Part shown: positions 1 through 6,934 of the stretch, piece by piece
Numbering within the stretch: the first letter of the stretch is position 1
How the letters are laid out: the number at the start of each line of letters is the position of its first letter
IMG/VR virus record: IMGVR_UViG_2671180828_000012
Coordinates: 1 to 6,934 of that record
Length of the DNA: 6,934 nucleotides
From: a virus
Lineage: Duplodnaviria; Heunggongvirae; Uroviricota; Caudoviricetes
Strand: one strand, 5' to 3'
Position numbers and translations under genes: made by a program
The notes under the pieces: model-generated
Told to the model about the DNA's origin: nothing
Database searches by the model: none
Seen by the model: only the letters and a program-made list of their open reading frames with translations

Positions 1-20
1 ATCAGACAGGCAGGATTATT

Positions 21-3000
21 TCAGCGCATATCATAGAGGAGGTCATGGTGGATAAGGGAAAAGAGATTCTTGCAGTACGAAATGCAGCCAGCAACGAATA
101 TGGCGGGATAAACTGTGAGGTGCAGTTTGAAGACGCGGTGAATGAAAAAGGGGAACAGGTATGGCTGCCGTATACTGCAACGGAACACATCGTTCATGAA
201 CAACTGATTCCCCTGCGCCACAAATAACGGCGTGGTGTTGCCGTCCTCCGGGTTAATCATCGCAATACGGTCAGCCAGCAGCAGTATGTTGCTCAGGGGC
301 TGGCCATCAGTATCCTCAATCCCCGCTCCAATACCGGCAACATAGGGTATGCCATTTTTTGTTTTCTGTACCTTCAGCATGTAAAGTGCAGCAAGGTCAT
401 CATTTGTGTCCTTCTGCACGCGCTGTATCTGCTGTATGGTGGCGCTCTGGTCCTCCAGCGTTTTACTGACCGTCTGTGTGATTTCATTGCGGGTTTCGGT
501 GATGGTGGTCTTCATCTCCGCCATCTCATCCGCAAGCTGGCTGTTGTCTATCAGCTCCCACAGCCCCTGAGCCAGATGCAGTTTTCCTATTTTTTCCCGA
601 AACAGCCCCAGATACCCTTCTGCATCATTGCTGGCCCGTCCACTGGCTTCAACAAAAGCAGATTTCCCCACCAGGTTAACGCTGCGTACATAAAACCAGA
701 AATCCTTCCCGGGCTTAATGTGCGGGCCGGAGACAGTCCACTGACTGCCAGTCCCCAGATAACGGGCAGATTTTTCCACCTGTGCCGTGTTCGTGATGCG
801 TTTTTCTGAGAACCAGAATTCAAACTGTACCGTCGGGTCATACACCGCAAGACGCGGGACCGCTGTTATCTGAAAATACCCCGGCGTCAGTTCAATGGTG
901 GCGGGTTTTGCTGGCGCGTTAATCCGGAAGGTGGTGGTGGCCGGTTCGCCCTGCTGGCCATAACTGTTAATTGCCCTGACTGTCAGGGTGTATTCCCCGA
1001 GCGGCAGACCACTGAAACGATGCTCTGTATCCGCAGTGATAGCGGTGGTCACCAGACGGCTGTCTTCTCCGCTTCCGCTGGTCAGTCGCAGACTGAAGCG
1101 CACCCCCTTCACCACCCGCGGCGTGTCCCATTTCGCCTGTGCCAGATACTGGCCGTCAGCTGCGCTCACCTCCACCGTCAGGTGCTGCACTGCCGGTGGG
1201 ATGACGCTGTTCAGGGAGCCTGACTGCGGCTCAAAGCGGGCACCGTTATCCACGATGGCTTCTTTTTCCGGTACGTGCTGCACTGCCGTGATGGCAAAGG
1301 TGCCGTCCGTGTTTTCCCGGATGGAGACACAGCGGAACAGGCGACGACGCAGTGACGGCAGGGAGAGTCCCCATACACCGTATGTCTCCACACCATCAGG
1401 CAGGGTGCTGACCTGTATCCGGTCCGGCGCGGGGTGTGCAGTGATGGCCACGCTCACCGGCTTACCGCTGCCGTTAATCAGGTTCACCGTGGCGGCACCG
1501 GTCTCCGGCAGGGTCACCTCACGGTCCAGTGTCAGGGTGCGGCTGGCGGCATCGATGGACAGGACACGTCCGCCGGTCATGGTCCCGGCATAGTCGTTAT
1601 CACAGATTTCAATAATGTCACCGGGTGTGTGACGCAGCCCCTGTGACCCGAGCGTGAAATCCACCGTCTGCGTTTCCAGCAGTCCGGTCTTTATCACCCA
1701 CAGCCCGGCACGGTGGGCCTGACCGCGACTGGTGCAGCCGAACGCATCCATCTTCAGCAGGTTGCGCCCGTAGCGCAGTATGGCTTCCGGGTCTTCCACC
1801 AGTTCCGTGGAGGTCTGCCAGCCGTTCTGCGGGTCGGTGTAATTCACCTCCACCGCCGTGTGCCGGTCCTTCAGGGCACTGAAGCTGTAGCGAAACCCCA
1901 CGCCGTTATCATCCACCACCACATCGCAGTTGGTGTACGGCCACACCACATCCGACAGGCGGTCCTGAACAAACGTCAGCATCTGGCCGTTCCATACCGG
2001 CATACAGCGCATCGCCGAGCAGAAATCACTGAGAACATCCCACGCCTTACGCTGTTGTGCCAGGTACGCATTGAAGGTCATCCGCGGCTCGGTGCCCCCG
2101 AAGCCATCCGGCACCATCTGGTCGCAGTACTGCCCGATGGCATACAGCGCCCACTTGTCCACATCCGCCGCCCCCAGACGTTTTCCCATGCCGTAGCGCG
2201 GGTGAGTCAGCATGTCCCACAGACACCAGGCCGGATTGTTGCTGTATGCCGGTTTCAGACTGCCGTCCCAGATACCACTGTACGTGCGTTTTTCCGGGTC
2301 ATAGTTTGACGGCACCTGGATGATGCGACCGCGGATATGGTAGTTCACCGTCATCTGCTGACCACCAAACTGCTCCGCATCCACCTGCAGCCCCACAATG
2401 GCCGTGTTCGGGTAGCACTGTTTCACATCGATAATTTCAGTGTACGATGACCAGAGCGTTCTGTTCTGCAACTGGTCCGTGGTGCTGTCCGCCGTCTCCC
2501 TGACCATCCGGATGTTAAAGGGCCGGGGCGGCAGATTATCCAGAATCACCGAGGCCAGGAACTGTGAGGTGGTCTTGCCGTTAATGGTGACGTCCTTTTC
2601 CGTCACCCAGCGACCATTACGCTGTAACTGAATCAGAATCCGGACAGAGGAAGGATTACGGTCGCCCTTTGACGTGGTCTCCACCAGTGACTGCACCCCG
2701 AAGGTCACCCGCAGGCGGTCAATGTTCGCGGACGTAATGGTGCGCGTCACCGGTTTTGCCTTCGTCACTTCCACGCCCAGTCCGGTTTCAGCTCCGGAGG
2801 ACTCAAAGCCTTCAGGTGGTGTCTGCTCCTGCTCCCCGGCGCGCCAGACCGCCGTCACACCGTGTATCACGGGATTACCGTCCGTGCCCGTCAGCGGGGT
2901 TTTGTTCACCAGAATACTCTGCAGGCCTTTCACCGGGCCTTCTATCGGTCCCTCACCAATCGCATCAATCACACTCATCATCTGCGTGGATTTGAGATTA

Positions 3001-3047
3001 TCCTTCGCCTCACGAGGCGTGTGTGCCTTACCGCCACCTTTTCCCAT
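21..3047 (-). CDS. J: Lambda J-like tail tip / host specificity protein, C-terminally truncated (1008 aa versus ~1130 aa in lambda)
   Basis: Translation starts MGKGGGKAHTPREAKDNLKSTQ and is collinear with lambda gpJ as I recall it for ~955 residues, through FVAQGNQLFMNDVF. The last 53 residues (RCSIRQPYLFPFF...) are unrelated and end at TGA 21-23. ATG at 3047-3045 with AGGGGAAGG upstream. Confidence 0.9.
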   Translation of the reverse strand: MGKGGGKAHTPREAKDNLKSTQMMSVIDAIGEGPIEGPVKGLQSILVNKTPLTGTDGNPVIHGVTAVWRAGEQEQTPPEGFESSGAETGLGVEVTKAKPVTRTITSANIDRLRVTFGVQSLVETTSKGDRNPSSVRILIQLQRNGRWVTEKDVTINGKTTSQFLASVILDNLPPRPFNIRMVRETADSTTDQLQNRTLWSSYTEIIDVKQCYPNTAIVGLQVDAEQFGGQQMTVNYHIRGRIIQVPSNYDPEKRTYSGIWDGSLKPAYSNNPAWCLWDMLTHPRYGMGKRLGAADVDKWALYAIGQYCDQMVPDGFGGTEPRMTFNAYLAQQRKAWDVLSDFCSAMRCMPVWNGQMLTFVQDRLSDVVWPYTNCDVVVDDNGVGFRYSFSALKDRHTAVEVNYTDPQNGWQTSTELVEDPEAILRYGRNLLKMDAFGCTSRGQAHRAGLWVIKTGLLETQTVDFTLGSQGLRHTPGDIIEICDNDYAGTMTGGRVLSIDAASRTLTLDREVTLPETGAATVNLINGSGKPVSVAITAHPAPDRIQVSTLPDGVETYGVWGLSLPSLRRRLFRCVSIRENTDGTFAITAVQHVPEKEAIVDNGARFEPQSGSLNSVIPPAVQHLTVEVSAADGQYLAQAKWDTPRVVKGVRFSLRLTSGSGEDSRLVTTAITADTEHRFSGLPLGEYTLTVRAINSYGQQGEPATTTFRINAPAKPATIELTPGYFQITAVPRLAVYDPTVQFEFWFSEKRITNTAQVEKSARYLGTGSQWTVSGPHIKPGKDFWFYVRSVNLVGKSAFVEASGRASNDAEGYLGLFREKIGKLHLAQGLWELIDNSQLADEMAEMKTTITETRNEITQTVSKTLEDQSATIQQIQRVQKDTNDDLAALYMLKVQKTKNGIPYVAGIGAGIEDTDGQPLSNILLLADRIAMINPEDGNTTPLFVAQGNQLFMNDVFRCSIRQPYLFPFFIHRVFKLHLTVYPAIFVAGCISYCKNLFSLIHHDLLYDMR
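45..227 (+). CDS. Hypothetical protein, probable 5' fragment of a gene truncated at the prophage deletion junction (60 aa; last ~14 codons lie in antisense J-homologous DNA)
   Basis: ATG at 45 (or GTG at 48) directly preceded by AGAGGAGG (35-42), a strong Shine-Dalgarno. The ORF is convergent with J and runs ~45 nt past the point where J homology begins (~183), so the C-terminus is probably junk from fusion. No family recognised. Confidence 0.35.
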   Translation: MVDKGKEILAVRNAASNEYGGINCEVQFEDAVNEKGEQVWLPYTATEHIVHEQLIPLRHK

Positions 3048-3150
3048 ACAGCCTTCCCCTGAATAAATTAACCGCCACTTGCCATTCCGTACAGAAGTCG
3101 GATATCCTTCGCCCGAAAAGCATGAAACACATTTCTGCCATGCTAAAGAG

Positions 3151-3186
3151 AAACCCCGGTATCAGCAGATACCGGGGTTTTCTTTC
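3151..3186. terminator. Perfect 13-bp inverted repeat with 4-nt loop, flanked by T-rich sequence on both strands (putative bidirectional intrinsic terminator)
   Basis: aaaccccggtatc (3151-3163), loop agca, gataccggggttt (3168-3180) is a perfect 13-bp stem. It is followed by tctttc on the plus strand and by ctcttta on the minus strand. It lies ~100 nt upstream of the J start codon. Confidence 0.5.
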
Positions 3187-3252
3187 ATGCCCACCGATAA
3201 TCCTGTTGGTTAAAACCGGTAATGGCATAAAAATTCTGAATATCTTCACATT

Positions 3253-3280
3253 TTCACAAACTGACCGTGGCGCGTATAAT
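3253..3280 (+). promoter_or_regulatory. Sigma70-like promoter: -35 TTCACA (3253-3258), 16-bp spacer, -10 TATAAT (3275-3280), with an A/T-rich upstream tract
   Basis: Consensus -10 hexamer TATAAT and a 5/6 match to TTGACA at 16-bp spacing. The A/T-rich stretch 3219-3245 is UP-element-like. Predicted start near G3287. Confidence 0.4.
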
Positions 3281-3286
3281 TTCTCT

Positions 3287-3385
3287 GCGTTAATTTTTTT
3301 GTCGTGATATAAGAATAATTCCTTACACTTAATCTTCGTAACTCTCCCGCAGTTCCTGTCCGCGATCACTGCGGGATTTTTTTAT
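3287..3385 (+). ncRNA. Candidate ~100-nt small RNA (moron-like), antisense to the late tail operon in the I-J intergenic insert
   Basis: Bounded by the promoter at 3253-3280 and the intrinsic terminator at 3345-3392. No ATG-initiated ORF lies between them. The body is AU-rich with C/U-rich tracts (UUCCUUACACUU, CUCUCCC) and ends in a GC stem plus U-tract, as in Hfq-type sRNAs. Ends are predicted, not measured. Confidence 0.3.
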
Positions 3386-3392
3386 TCTTTTT
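3345..3392 (+). terminator. Rho-independent terminator: 9-bp GC-rich stem, 14-nt loop, U-tract
   Basis: tcccgcagt (3345-3353) pairs perfectly with actgcggga (3368-3376), followed by tttttttattcttttt. It is only terminator-like in the plus orientation; the minus-strand flank is not U-rich. Confidence 0.55.
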
Positions 3393-3609
3393 ACCCCTGC
3401 CGCCCGATAACCACGACCTTTCCGCCCCCGCCTTCATCACGGGTGCTGATGTCCTGGGATATACGGCGGGAGCCAACCAGCATTTCACCGGAGATATTCA
3501 CGCAGGGGAAATATCTTTCCCCCTCCGGCGTGCTTACCACGAAGCCGCACGACTCCGCAGGCGCACACCGCCGGGCATGCGCCAGAATCGCTGATTCAGT
3601 CTGTGTCAT
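3391..3609 (-). pseudogene. In-frame fusion remnant of tail assembly genes K (N-terminal ~42 aa) and I (C-terminal ~30 aa)
   Basis: ORF from ATG 3609 encodes MTQTESAILAHARRCAPAESCGFVVSTPEGERYFPCVNISGE, matching the lambda gpK N-terminus as recalled, then MLVGSRRISQDISTRDEGGGGKVVVIGRQG, which resembles the lambda gpI C-terminus (...GEMRVGSRVVSQEISTADEGDGGQVVVIGR). Stop TAA at 3393-3391. The K catalytic region and most of I are missing. Confidence 0.7.
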
Positions 3610-3619
3610 AAACCGGGAT

Positions 3620-4318
3620 TTACTGCGAAAGTTTATTAATGGAAAGGAAACCGCCAAAATTGCCGACATTCCTGCGCAGTTCACACCCGCGCATGCACTT
3701 GCTGCATCTGTCCTTACGGATATCCGTGGTGGGTTTATCGAACTCATCCGCCACAGCCCCGCCCGTGTAACCACACTCATCAGAGCGGTAGGTCCACATA
3801 CAGGTGTTCGCCAGCATGATACGACCGGGAAACAGCGCCCCGTCCGTCTCGGTCGGTGTGGCCAGCACAAACGAGGCCGTCATGGCTGTCAGCTGCGACA
3901 TCTGCTCCACCACCCAGCGGTCACTCAACTCCTGCTCCGGGTCCGCCGCCGGATTGCCCGCAACGAAATTCACCGCATCCAGAAAACGGGCATACACCCG
4001 GCGGCGGACCACCGTGGCCCCCACCAGACTCTGCAGGTCTTCCGCCATCCCGGTGACCAGACCGAACAGATTGGACACCGTCAGCGACGGTCTGGCACTG
4101 CTGCCCTTCCCGCTCATCTCAAAACCGCTGCCGTCAATCGGGTATGCCTGATATTGCCGCCCCTGCCAGGTGACCGGCTCCCCTTTTTCATTCAGCTCAT
4201 TACAGAAAAAATACCGCTCACCACCCTGCACCGTCAGGTCAATTTCCCAGAGTACCACCCGCGGTGACTGCTCTGATTTAACCGACTCGCTCAGACTTTC
4301 TTCGTGAATATCCTGCAT
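3620..4318 (-). CDS. L: Lambda L-like tail tip assembly protein (232 aa)
   Basis: MQDIHEESLSE...VVLWEIDLT...GGERYFFCNE...GNFGGFLSINKLSQ is full length and collinear with lambda gpL. The ATG overlaps the M stop codon (ATGA), as in lambda. Confidence 0.93.
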   Translation of the reverse strand: MQDIHEESLSESVKSEQSPRVVLWEIDLTVQGGERYFFCNELNEKGEPVTWQGRQYQAYPIDGSGFEMSGKGSSARPSLTVSNLFGLVTGMAEDLQSLVGATVVRRRVYARFLDAVNFVAGNPAADPEQELSDRWVVEQMSQLTAMTASFVLATPTETDGALFPGRIMLANTCMWTYRSDECGYTGGAVADEFDKPTTDIRKDRCSKCMRGCELRRNVGNFGGFLSINKLSQ

Positions 4319-4647
4319 CAGTTCACCACCTGCTTAAACTCCGCGCTGAACTCAACGCGCAACATCCCGACCCGCGCAGACCACCCGGCACAGGTCACCT
4401 TTATCTGCCGGTATGCATAGGGTGGCTTCCACAAAAATGCCTTCCAGCCACCGTGCTCTGCCAGGAACGCTTCCAGATGCCGGGCCTCCTCCCGGGTCAC
4501 GGAAAGCGTCACCCTGTATGTTTTCAGGTCAGCATTCAGCCCTGCCGCCATACGCTGTGAGTACCCGTCACCAAAACGCACTTCACGCACCGATGGCTGC
4601 GAGTTCACCTCCATATCCGGCTTCACTTTCCAGCGAAAGGTTTTCAT
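4318..4647 (-). CDS. M: Lambda M-like tail tip assembly protein (109 aa)
   Basis: MKTFRWKVKPDMEV...VRFGDGYSQR...MLRVEFSAEFKQVVN is collinear with lambda gpM. The start overlaps the H' stop (ATGA) and the stop overlaps the L start. Confidence 0.93.
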   Translation of the reverse strand: MKTFRWKVKPDMEVNSQPSVREVRFGDGYSQRMAAGLNADLKTYRVTLSVTREEARHLEAFLAEHGGWKAFLWKPPYAYRQIKVTCAGWSARVGMLRVEFSAEFKQVVN

Positions 4648-5840
4648 CCACCGCTCCCTGATAACATACCGCCATCACGCAACTGCAGCCGGAGTTCATC
4701 CTGTGCCCCCTTGCGGGCCATCTCATACACCGCTTTCATCAGCTGCGGCCCTGCCCGCCCGTTGGGGCCGTCGTTCTGAATCACCACGTGATTGTTCTGA
4801 TTAAAATTAATGCCTTCCGCCCGCCGCATCTGCGCCGGACTTCCGGCACCGCCGACATAACCACCTTCCGCATAGCCCCGCATCAGGCGGTACAGATTGC
4901 CGACACCAATCCGGCTGGTCGCCTCCTTCGTGAAGACAAACTCCCCGCGATGAACAATCCCCGCAGGTTCATATTTACCCCCCGTCCCCGTAAATCCCCC
5001 GGTCGCGAAATGGAAGTTCGCCGCCGCAGCCTGAATGGCCGTCCCCGTGGAGGCAGACGCACCACCACCGAAAGCACCGCCAATGGCGCTGCCGATACTC
5101 CCGACTATCCCCACCATCGCCTGCTTCAGAAAAATCTCTGTCAGCATGGACAGCACAGAACGGGTGAAACCACGCCAGTTCTGTTCGCTGCCGGTCAGCA
5201 TCGCTGCCATATTCTGTGCAATACCGTCAAAGGTCTGCGTGGCCGCGTTTTTAACCTGCGAAAAACTGTCCGTCGCACTTTCCGCCCACTCGCCCCAGCC
5301 GGACTTCATCCCGGCCATCCAGCTTCCACGAAGCTGCTCCTCCGCAGACCAGGTGTTCTTCAGTGCAGATGTGGCCTTCGCCAGCGCAGCCGGATTATCA
5401 CCGTACACCTCACGAAGGCGCTGCTCTTCCGACTCCCGCTGCGCCTGACGGTCGGTGAGTCCGCGGGCTTTTGCGCTGATTGCCGCCTGCTTCGCGCTCT
5501 GCTGCTGTTCAAACCGCGCCGCCTGCTGTGCCAGCTCATTCAGCCGTTTCTGGTGTTCAATCTTGTCGCCCAGCTCAGCCAGCTGGCGTTTGTACTCCAG
5601 CGTTTCTTTCTCATGGGCCAGCAGGGATTTTTCCTGCTCAGATACCATGCGGCATTTAGCGGCATTCATCGTACACTCAACGGTTAGCTCTTCATTCGTG
5701 GCATTCACCTGAAAGGTCCGGGAGTGTAATTGCGTACATTTACCACTGAACGAACCTTCAACAAGAACACGACCACGCTGCAAAATACGGAACGGAATTG
5801 TTCCCTGAAAAGGCTTTACGGTTACCAGTAATTTCTTCAT
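4644..5840 (-). CDS. H: Chimeric tape-measure protein: foreign ~61-aa N-terminal module fused in frame to the C-terminal ~335 aa of a lambda H-like tape measure (398 aa)
   Basis: From SEQEKSLLAHEKETLEYKRQLAELG to the end (...KAVYEMARKGAQDELRLQLRDGGMLSGSGG) it is collinear with the lambda gpH C-terminal third as recalled. The N-terminus MKKLLVTVKPFQGTIPFRILQRGRVLVEGSFSGKCTQLHSRTFQVNATNEELTVECTMNAAKCRM is unrelated. ATG at 5840 has GGAG 7 nt upstream. The listed ORF start at 5858 is a TTG and less likely. Confidence 0.8.
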   Translation of the reverse strand: MKKLLVTVKPFQGTIPFRILQRGRVLVEGSFSGKCTQLHSRTFQVNATNEELTVECTMNAAKCRMVSEQEKSLLAHEKETLEYKRQLAELGDKIEHQKRLNELAQQAARFEQQQSAKQAAISAKARGLTDRQAQRESEEQRLREVYGDNPAALAKATSALKNTWSAEEQLRGSWMAGMKSGWGEWAESATDSFSQVKNAATQTFDGIAQNMAAMLTGSEQNWRGFTRSVLSMLTEIFLKQAMVGIVGSIGSAIGGAFGGGASASTGTAIQAAAANFHFATGGFTGTGGKYEPAGIVHRGEFVFTKEATSRIGVGNLYRLMRGYAEGGYVGGAGSPAQMRRAEGINFNQNNHVVIQNDGPNGRAGPQLMKAVYEMARKGAQDELRLQLRDGGMLSGSGG

Positions 5841-5863
5841 GCATTCTCCGGATAACAAAAATA

Positions 5864-6331
5864 CTAGTTAATACACTGAGTGCGGATATAGTCCTGCGCC
5901 CCTTCCAGTTGCTTCTGCATTGTCATCAACCGCTCTCTGAGGGTGAAATAATCCCGTTCAGCGGTGTCTGCCAGTCGGGGGCCGGTTGCATTATCCACGC
6001 GGGCGGTGCCGGTGGCTTCACGCACGGAACCTGGACAGGTGGCGTTGATACGCAGGCTGCGGCGACCAGCGGCAACGTCAGCGCGCAGAGTTTCATTTTC
6101 AGCTCTCGCATCGGCTAACTCCTTTGTGTATTTTTCATCCAGCGCAACAACATCACGCTGACGCTGCTGCATGTCAGTAATGGTTGTGTTTGCCAGCTCC
6201 AGCTCTCTGGCTTTTTTATCGCGCTGCGCTTTGTAGGTGATGGCGTTATCGCGGTAATGATTCAGCCCCAGACTAAGCACACCACAGGCTACCAGCAGGA
6301 CAATAATCACCACACACAGAACACGGTTCAT
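5864..6331 (-). CDS. Rz: Rz-like i-spanin (inner-membrane spanin subunit, 155 aa)
   Basis: [48 protein letters not shown]...[29 protein letters not shown] is collinear with lambda Rz: N-terminal transmembrane segment then coiled-coil periplasmic domain. ATG at 6331; the longer ORF listed to 6415 is an upstream extension. Confidence 0.9.
5926..6111 (-). CDS. Rz1: Rz1-like o-spanin (outer-membrane lipoprotein), fully embedded in the +1 frame of Rz
   Basis: [61 protein letters not shown] has a signal peptide with lipobox-like AAAC and a proline-rich body, and is collinear with lambda Rz1. Confidence 0.85.
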
Positions 6332-6332
6332 A

Positions 6333-6419
6333 TCACCACCAACGGATTGCCCAGACCAGAACAGCAATGGCCACAATACGAATGGCAAATGCCATTGCCC
6401 GAATAAGTTCAGCACTCAT
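6333..6419 (-). CDS. Possible 28-aa hydrophobic peptide ([28 protein letters not shown]) whose stop lies 1 nt before the Rz start
   Basis: ATG at 6419-6417, TGA at 6335-6333, Rz ATG at 6331. The product is essentially one transmembrane helix. The RBS is weak (AAAAAG) and the frame is open a further ~30 codons upstream without an ATG, so it may be a gene remnant. Confidence 0.2.
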
Positions 6420-6430
6420 CTTTTTAAAGT

Positions 6431-6613
6431 TCACGATTTCAGCGCAATGACCAGTTTTGCCAGCCCATACAGTATCGGAGACACAGCGATACCAACCGCC
6501 ACCCACTTAATAGCAAAAGCCAGCGCTCTGCTGATGTCATCAGTTACTGGCGCTTTCAGTTCAAGGCCGTTTTTCATAGTCAACCTCAACAGAATTCGTT
6601 TATACTTTTCCAT
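6431..6613 (-). CDS. Small tail-anchored membrane protein (60 aa) at the position where a lambdoid lysis cassette carries its holin; family not recognised
   Basis: ATG at 6613-6611 preceded by AAGGGAGAAC. Product MEKYKRILLRLTMKNGLELKAPVTDDISRALAFAIKWVAVGIAVSPILYGLAKLVIALKS has a basic soluble N-terminus and a single C-terminal transmembrane helix. Stop TGA at 6433-6431. It does not resemble lambda S or phage 21 S as I recall them. Confidence 0.45.
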   Translation of the reverse strand: MEKYKRILLRLTMKNGLELKAPVTDDISRALAFAIKWVAVGIAVSPILYGLAKLVIALKS

Positions 6614-6646
6614 GTTCTCCCTTGCCTTATCCAAGGTCAGAAACAC

Positions 6647-6690
6647 AAAACCCCGCTTGCAGCCAACAAACGGGGTTTTTACTTTTATTC
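6647..6690. terminator. GC-rich hairpin flanked by T-runs on both strands (bidirectional intrinsic terminator), ~30 nt upstream of the 60-aa ORF
   Basis: aaaaccccg (6647-6655) pairs with cggggtttt (6671-6679) around a 15-nt loop, followed by ttacttttattc on plus and by ttttgtgtttctgacc on minus. Its position relative to the lysis genes recalls lambda tR', but no convincing upstream late promoter was found. Confidence 0.4.
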
Positions 6691-6702
6691 ACTTAGTTTT
6701 TG

Positions 6703-6934
6703 TTAGTTCGCAGGATTTCGTGTTATCCGTCCGTGTGAGCAAACCGCATTTTTCAGCAAAATATTCTGCTTATCTGTCAATTCCCCAGCACGCCAGCGCA
6801 CTCTCCTGGTCGCGACGGGATACCTGACCGTAACAGTTGTTTGAGCGAATACGGCAGTCTCTGCCACCGTCCTTAATCCACCAGCGAATCGCTTCGCATG
6901 CTCCCCTGCGATCACCTGCATTAATTCGTCTGTA
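6703..6934 (-). CDS. 3' end of an ORF entering from beyond the right edge (at least 76 codons); unknown function
   Basis: Open frame from the window edge to TAA at 6705-6703 (...ELTDKQNILLKNAVCSHGRITRNPAN). In a lambdoid layout this slot would hold the Q antiterminator or a nin-region gene, but I see no Q-like zinc-finger motif. The internal ATG at 6921 has no Shine-Dalgarno. Confidence 0.25.
   Translation of the reverse strand, partial: TDELMQVIAGEHAKRFAGGLRTVAETAVFAQTTVTVRYPVATRRVRWRAGELTDKQNILLKNAVCSHGRITRNPAN

Follow-up and report, generated by a model that had tools for sequence, protein, structure and literature searches.

Lysis cassette of the window

The DNA analysed here is a 6,934-nt stretch of a Caudoviricetes record from IMG/VR (IMGVR_UViG_2671180828_000012, positions 1 to 6,934; hereafter, the window), and our subject is a pair of small open reading frames (ORFs), A and B', located directly upstream of the spanin genes Rz and Rz1. 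All relevant genes, followed from 6934 to 21, lie on the minus strand. Within the window, the lysis cassette consists of the 3' end of an endolysin gene, a terminator-like hairpin, two genes for small membrane proteins and Rz/Rz1, in this order. Rz (5864..6331, with the ATG at 6331) encodes an i-spanin of 155 aa, which matches Pfam Phage_lysis (E-value 9.6e-50) over positions 1-125 of 126, and the gene for the 61-aa o-spanin lipoprotein Rz1 (5926..6111; Pfam Rz1, 4.3e-21) is embedded in it in the +1 frame. ORF A (60 aa, MEKYKRILLRLTMKNGLELKAPVTDDISRALAFAIKWVAVGIAVSPILYGLAKLVIALKS) runs from the ATG at 6613 to the stop at 6431 and carries a Shine–Dalgarno (SD)-like sequence, AAGGGAG, at 6623..6617, 3 nt 5' of the ATG. 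ORF B' (28 aa) begins 11 nt past the ORF A stop and extends from the ATG at 6419 to the stop at 6333 (TGA, 6335..6333), a single base (6332) separating it from the ATG of Rz. The hairpin (6647..6679), identified by a terminator scan between the endolysin gene and ORF A, has a 14-bp stem with an A-run before it and a T-rich tail after it. Its folding free energy is -21.6 kcal/mol (z = -4.0), and none of 200 shuffled sequences folded as well. In relatives, a strong hairpin with an A-run and a T-run always precedes the first small gene, at a distance of 26-58 nt, and exists in two versions that differ in the inner stem. An Rfam search around it (E <= 1) returned nothing credible, the rimP leader reaching 27.6 bits against a gathering score of 47 and the other matches falling well short of their thresholds. 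No sigma-70-like promoter was predicted on the coding strand between 5800 and 6934, and one weak promoter-like site on the plus strand is at the level expected by chance.

An earlier reading of this stretch, made from its letters alone (the sequence-only reading), had described an intact Rz/Rz1 pair, an upstream terminator, two small ORFs between that terminator and Rz, the first with a ribosome-binding site, and a gap of 1 nt between the second and Rz; the Pfam matches, the hairpin and the coordinates given above bear out each of these points. Its headline, however, was that the cassette had no endolysin and no room for a muramidase. This part fails: the minus strand from 6934 to 6770, upstream of the terminator, translates to YRRINAGDRRGACEAIRWWIKDGGRDCRIRSNNCYGQVSRRDQESALACWGIDR followed by a stop codon, which is the C-terminus of a 177-aa lysozyme of E. 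coli relatives. The segment comprises the last 54 codons and the stop of an R21-type (GH24) lysozyme gene (phrog_7 endolysin, 1.9e-14), missed in the ORF listing because the window ends inside the gene. The whole lysozyme of 177 aa is encoded in near-identical relatives (Pfam Phage_lysozyme 3.3e-24 for a full-length relative), and in three loci (L004, L231 and L234) a 71-aa phage-21-type holin is encoded upstream of it (Pfam Phage_holin_2_1, 9e-33). The position of this pinholin falls outside the window, and its presence is read from relatives that match the window up to its edge. The segment spanning the lysozyme, A, B' and Rz (window 6934..5641) is 99.8-99.9% identical to loci L004, L005, L231 and L234, and the complete prophages L231 and L234 display Q, nanS-p, holin, lysozyme, A, B', Rz, Nu1, terminase and portal genes.

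The apparent retention of spanins without an endolysin is an artefact of the window edge; the endolysin is present, and nothing unusual is left to explain there. The window contains the distal part of an ordinary phage-21-type cassette (a pinholin, an endolysin of the signal-anchor-release (SAR) type and spanins) in a deletion-damaged lambdoid prophage, an arrangement of lysis genes that is standard for lambdoid phages resembling Shiga toxin (Stx) phages (PMC8136144). When set against the cassette of phage 21 and Stx phages (S21, R21, Rz/Rz1; PMC8136144), the lysozyme C-terminus, Rz and Rz1 of the window and the pinholin of its relatives are ordinary members, whereas the hairpin and the pair of small genes form an insertion separating R from Rz.

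Family of the small proteins and its genomic setting

ORF A matches phrog_1115, phrog_4493 and phrog_3246 (6.6e-42, 3.5e-29 and 8.6e-19, respectively), for which the PHROG annotation is unknown function, and is a full-length member of this family. ORF B' matches phrog_4493 (3.8e-6, profile positions 24-54 of 56) and phrog_3246 (9.2e-5) with the C-terminal half only; the full-length B-type protein matches phrog_4493 at 1.4e-24. Neither these three proteins nor ORF C, described below, have a match in Pfam, NCBIfam or PADLOC, and for A and B' no holin family of Pfam or NCBIfam was found at E <= 1. The close homologues of ORF A (n = 119), from E. coli, E. marmotae and Salmonella, are every one annotated as 'hypothetical'. 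An exhaustive profile search against 1.84 billion representatives yielded 34 relatives of 22-87 aa, bar one marginal match in a 926-aa protein, and a scan of species-representative genome contigs with ORF A, in which the module may be absent, gave no confirmed relative. We also considered ORF A as a fragment of a larger known protein, which was rejected, since the profile search gave no longer or characterized relative. The family is a self-contained orphan group of small (28-87 aa) single-pass membrane proteins of enterobacterial temperate phages.

Divergent members of the family have in common a basic N-terminus, the motifs MKNGLE(V/L)xAP and (R/K)AxAFAI(K/R), one transmembrane (TM) helix and an end in (R/K)WW or ALK(S). 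ORF A has all of these motifs, and ORF B' has only the RAxAFAI(R) motif and the TM helix. In ORF A, a basic N-terminal segment precedes a C-terminal hydrophobic stretch (scored 17-aa window, residues 42-58; N-flank +8/-4) with only 'KS' beyond it, and the AlphaFold (AF2) model has a helix at residues 23-59 with a predicted local distance difference test score of 81-87 and a weak helix at 2-14. The positive-inside rule predicts an N-in, tail-anchored-like topology for this protein. ORF B' is approximately one TM helix, ending in RWW. A holin has a TM domain followed by a charged hydrophilic C-terminal cytoplasmic tail, whereas the tails of A and B' are 'KS' and 'RWW'; likewise, an i-spanin has an N-terminal TM domain and a periplasmic coiled coil of ~100 aa, whereas A and B' have almost no residues past the TM helix.

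The origin of B' can be traced through the single B gene of other cassettes, such as that of GER2. In a DNA alignment, this gene is collinear first with ORF A, as far as the AFAI-coding motif, and then with ORF B', between this motif and the Rz junction. In terms of a B-type protein, B' covers residues ~22-50, where the counterpart segment is ASLDLTRAAAFAI, and it has its own ATG. In GER2 and phiSTEC1575-Stx2k, a full-length B-type gene has the same TGAtATG junction to the next gene. B' is an N-terminally short paralogue of the B-type branch; it is present in at least five allele backgrounds, with the ATG kept. Chimeric proteins include an A N-terminus with a B TM helix (P0116), a short N-terminus with an A TM helix (P0109) and C fused to A (P0090), and recombination evidently favours the AFAI motif. 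B' as a remnant of a holin or endolysin was rejected, as it is a partial copy of the paralogue of ORF A.

What the sequence-only reading had said of the two proteins is thus partly supported. The single hydrophobic helix in each of them, C-terminal in A, agrees with our topology analysis, and the remark that neither resembles the S proteins of lambda or phage 21 fits the lack of a Pfam holin match. By contrast, its suggestion of a holin remnant does not stand, because relatives have an S21-type pinholin upstream and A is complete and belongs to a separate family. Membrane activity of the small proteins, another of its options, may hold. The same reading had offered a refuting test, namely that the 60-aa protein be a fragment of a longer one and the 28-aa frame the residue of a deleted endolysin. 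The former is contradicted by the size of the relatives; of the latter, the partial-copy half is correct, but the copy derives from the paralogue of ORF A and not from an endolysin.

To assess whether the small frames are genes, dN/dS (the ratio of nonsynonymous to synonymous substitution rates) was calculated by the Nei-Gojobori method over unique alleles, pairwise averages being phylogenetically non-independent. ORF A (41 alleles) has a dN/dS of 0.235 in frame versus 0.64 and 2.4 off frame. The values are 0.063 for full-length B, 0.30 for B' (6 alleles) and 0.31 for ORF C, and the DNA of A, B, B' and C read in the other two frames gives 0.6-4.8. Variable sites are distributed over the three codon positions as 17/8/36 in A (p = 4e-5), 9/1/28 in B (p = 2.5e-7) and 8/1/10 in B' (p = 0.029), with the third position the most variable. 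A, B, B' and C are under purifying selection in their annotated frames only and can be regarded as real genes. On the plus strand, a 126-aa ORF (6447..6827) extends across both the hairpin and ORF A, and some assemblies annotate its equivalent as a gene (e.g. L229:5787-6002). It is probably spurious, having no family match, and it is the minus-strand frames that show the signal of selection.

For a census of the genomic slot, 234 loci were gathered with A-type, B-type and Salmonella-type queries, the counts being approximate, as some contigs were fetched twice. The order of genes is invariant: endolysin, an optional 93-aa protein, the family gene(s) and then Rz/Rz1 or a 60-aa lipoprotein gene (phrog_7528). 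The endolysin before the family gene is of one of three kinds: lysozyme of the R21 type, GH108 muramidase or M15 peptidase. Lysozyme-A-C-Rz is found in 74 loci, lysozyme-B-Rz in 44, A'-B' in 12 and lysozyme-A-B'-Rz, the layout of the window, in 8. ORF C (L003:3198-3329; MSDKLITLAKILCVIVGISFSLMLVALF…, phrog_4906, likewise annotated as of unknown function) is a 43-aa single-TM peptide and the usual partner of A in the place of B'; it has a strong SD, and its stop overlaps or abuts the Rz start. In GH108/M15 cassettes (phiSTEC1575-Stx2k, L085:1649-1831, and ~70 others, e.g. L140 and L171), the lipoprotein gene follows the family gene by 1-5 nt, replacing Rz/Rz1, and the flanks retrieved showed no Rz. 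The phrog_7528 lipoprotein, of 60 aa, has the lipobox LVGC and a mature part of ~29 aa with two more Cys residues, and may represent an alternative factor for outer-membrane disruption. Rz and the lipoprotein gene occur together in 9 loci. The optional 93-aa protein (phrog_33497, annotated as of unknown function) is cysteine-rich and lies between the M15/GH108 endolysin and the family gene (L085:1121-1402 and ~25 other loci).

The module is found in the plaque-forming phages PhiR12_x, PhiR5_x, GER2 and phiSTEC1575-Stx2k, as well as in prophages that possess terminase and portal genes. Parts of the A/B' segment are present in 1,740 out of 5,426 complete E. coli genomes, and full-length B in 673-1,156, including the O104:H4 outbreak lineage; exact A and B' over the full query length are found in only 2 complete genomes and in many draft assemblies. 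The module is optional, because in the Qin cassette of K-12 the slot contains no homologue: rrrQ overlaps rzpQ, with nothing between them. Its GC content is 43-47%, compared with 50-58% in the flanks.

The last small ORF lies directly against the gene downstream. In 105 loci the junction has the form TGGTGGTGAtATG, that is, the stop of B or B', 1 nt and then the ATG of Rz or of the lipoprotein gene. In the window, GGTGGTGA (6340..6333) constitutes the last codons of B', encoding …WW*, and doubles as the SD region of Rz. In some prophages (L008, L040; L232:6337-7272), a gene for an N6/N4 DNA methyltransferase lies between ORF C and Rz, itself ending in GGTGGTGAtATG. The GGTGGTGAtATG junction to Rz is retained after this insertion (L008); since GGTGGTGA is kept before Rz despite the methyltransferase gene, it doubles as the ribosome-binding region of Rz.

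The remainder of the window belongs to a damaged prophage. Identity with L231/L234 and L004/L005 ends at 5641, ~220 nt 3' of Rz, at a deletion junction beyond which lies the C-terminal remnant of a tape-measure gene (4644..5641; Tape_meas_lam_C 4.2e-22), followed by the tail genes M, L, K-like and J (21..4647; Phage_min_tail, Phage_tail_L and GpJ domains). The source prophage is defective, because its packaging, head and proximal tail genes have been deleted, in line with the cryptic prophage of the sequence-only reading; its lysis cassette seems to be intact. The junction at 5641 falls within a 74-aa ORF downstream of Rz, and a 404-aa TTG-initiated ORF in the ORF list (minus strand, region 4644-5858) is a fusion artefact of the same junction. 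A JAB-domain ORF (3391-3870, minus strand; a weak match, tail K-like, TTG start) overlaps the Phage_tail_L ORF (3620-4318) by ~250 nt; its true start is probably farther downstream, or the gene is damaged. In another E. coli assembly (L230:6283-6495), the same lysozyme-A-B' cassette has an Rz cut to 70 aa and joined straight to tail-tip, Lom and Hok genes, which is an independent deletion at nearly the same place.

Proposed role and rival explanations

The reading we favour, with moderate confidence, is that A and B' may act as late-expressed, single-pass inner-membrane accessory lysis proteins. According to this proposal, their transcription would occur solely within the Q-antiterminated late operon, by polymerase reading through the hairpin, because the genes lack a promoter of their own and the terminator lies upstream. 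ORF A would be inserted N-in through its C-terminal TM helix, and the (R/K)AxAFAI(K/R) motif would face the cytoplasm. As the 3' codons of the last small ORF make up the SD region of Rz, this ORF would hand ribosomes on to the spanin gene. The products would be non-essential accessory factors at the cytoplasmic membrane, tuning the triggering of the holin or the loss of proton-motive force, and we infer that they are neither holin, endolysin nor spanin subunit. Given that family members occur with three types of endolysin and with two or more of holin, a role specific to one partner, such as release of a SAR endolysin, is unlikely, and they more plausibly influence the membrane or the timing in general. 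A SAR-endolysin-specific, releasin-like role was downgraded in particular, as GH108 and M15 endolysins precede family genes too.

Several points weigh against a function in lysis. The proposal rests on position, co-orientation and coupling, and the proteins have no homology to lysis proteins. The Qin cassette of K-12 works without the module, which is consequently dispensable, and lambda and phage 21 are not known to carry it. The association with three endolysin, at least two holin and two downstream gene types argues against a specific partner. Moreover, the module is AT-richer than its flanks and is present or absent in the manner of a mobile insert, as are cargo genes, and the 234 loci, having been chosen by similarity to the family, constitute a non-independent sample. 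As for B', it is preceded by no SD, just by a conserved AT-rich context, TTTAAA(A/C)AGATG, and its selection signal may have been partly inherited from full-length B alleles via recombination; with no SD, its translation is presumed.

The function of B' itself deserves separate consideration. It is a plausible, though by our estimate not the likelier, explanation that B' is a recombination leftover serving mainly as a translational leader, which keeps the GGTGGTGA SD and feeds ribosomes to Rz, and that only A or full-length B is functional. Such an explanation applies to B' alone and fits whichever view of A is taken. The lack of an SD, the correspondence to residues ~22-50 of full-length B, and the fact that the GGTGGTGAtATG junction belongs to Rz and survives another gene in front of it are all consistent with a leader, and with so few B' alleles the selection test (dN/dS 0.30, p = 0.029) is weak. 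On the other hand, the ATG, frame and stop are kept in at least five diverged backgrounds, in one of them 93 nt from the upstream stop, the DNA has diverged from full-length B mostly by synonymous or conservative changes, and the same short N-terminus is also found fused to an A-type TM helix (P0109).

An alternative to any lysis function, which we consider unlikely, is that the small genes encode cargo (moron-like) membrane peptides, carried on a mobile insert of hairpin and small genes in the late operon. Their purpose could be, for instance, superinfection exclusion, interference with host membrane proteins, or defence or counter-defence, and the position beside Rz would then be merely a permissive site for insertion and recombination. 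Presence or absence of the module among otherwise similar cassettes, its GC content below that of the flanks, its modular and highly recombinogenic alleles and chimeras, and its independence of any single endolysin or holin type all agree with such an origin. However, the module lacks its own promoter, and its terminator is placed upstream instead of downstream, the reverse of the classical moron layout; in virtually every locus it is tightly coupled to the lysis gene that follows, and it always occupies the same slot, even beside unrelated endolysins, and has no PADLOC match.

Two bolder versions of the accessory lysis reading can be envisaged: A, B and C might constitute a general inner-membrane trigger or timer for any holin/endolysin pair, or the coupled pair of a B-type protein and the phrog_7528 lipoprotein might provide a compact, non-spanin breach of the outer membrane in GH108/M15 cassettes. 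We hold these to be rather improbable. More doubtful still are type-I-toxin-like depolarizing peptides forming an addiction or stress module of a cryptic prophage. In size, hydrophobicity and aromatic/basic C-terminus, B' resembles small inner-membrane toxins such as Hok, TisB and Ibs; yet no antisense RNA family (none above threshold in Rfam) or minus-strand promoter was detected, there is no homology to known toxin families, and the genes belong to the late operon in viable phages and in complete prophages, not just in cryptic ones. Finally, the notion that the cassette had lost its endolysin and that the small ORFs are holin remnants or a holin/antiholin pair, prompted by the lack of a complete muramidase ORF among those listed inside the window, is hardly credible, given that the window has the 3' end of the endolysin gene, near-identical relatives carry the whole lysozyme with an S21-type pinholin upstream, and the small ORFs lack a holin-family match and belong to a family of their own.

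Comparison with known lysis systems

What remains after the correction of the endolysin is a widespread, selected and uncharacterized family at a fixed slot in the lysis cassettes of Stx-type and other lambdoid phages. Extra small genes in such cassettes will not surprise a specialist; this module, however, is common, under selection and directly testable. We found no paper describing the small ORFs, literal peptide strings matched none, and the survey of Stx-phage cassettes (PMC8136144) does not mention them. Their sequences are already in the databases as 'hypothetical' and, if they act in lysis, would become accessory membrane proteins of the lysis cassette.

Antiholins and holin-like accessory proteins, such as S21-71, T4 RI and P1 LydB, are small inner-membrane proteins that are co-expressed with the holin and tune the timing of lysis. 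A and B' have no sequence relationship with them, lack the charged C-terminal cytoplasmic tail of holins, and are encoded after the endolysin and not with the holin. A precedent for an extra factor is the releasin gp25 (DUF2730) of phage Mu, a small membrane-tethered accessory lysis factor encoded a few genes from the SAR endolysin (PMC9239132). It comprises 99 aa, with an N-terminal TM domain (N-out/C-in) and an anionic cytoplasmic domain of 73 aa (PMC9239132), whereas ORF A, with 60 aa, a C-terminal TM helix and a short basic N-terminus, has the opposite arrangement and no DUF2730 match. Furthermore, unlike gp25, the family described here also accompanies non-SAR endolysins.

The second precedent is Lcc6 of the Shewanella phage LambdaSo, a protein of ~60-65 aa with a single TM helix, which is harmless alone and needed at the holin step, for pinholin-level depolarization, in a lambdoid system of pinholin, SAR endolysin and Rz-Rz1 (bioRxiv 10.1101/2024.01.23.576932). 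Its TM helix is N-terminal (aa 5-22), followed by a cytoplasmic tail of 43 aa, and it is encoded near xis, far from the lysis genes (bioRxiv 10.1101/2024.01.23.576932). ORF A is similar in size and also has a single TM helix, but its predicted topology is the opposite. Collectively, the work on the Mu releasin and LambdaSo Lcc6 indicates that holin, endolysin and spanin are not always the full parts list of phage lysis. The small genes between the endolysin and Rz are easy candidates for a further accessory lysis function of this kind, in phages in which the timing of lysis governs the release of both phage and Shiga toxin.

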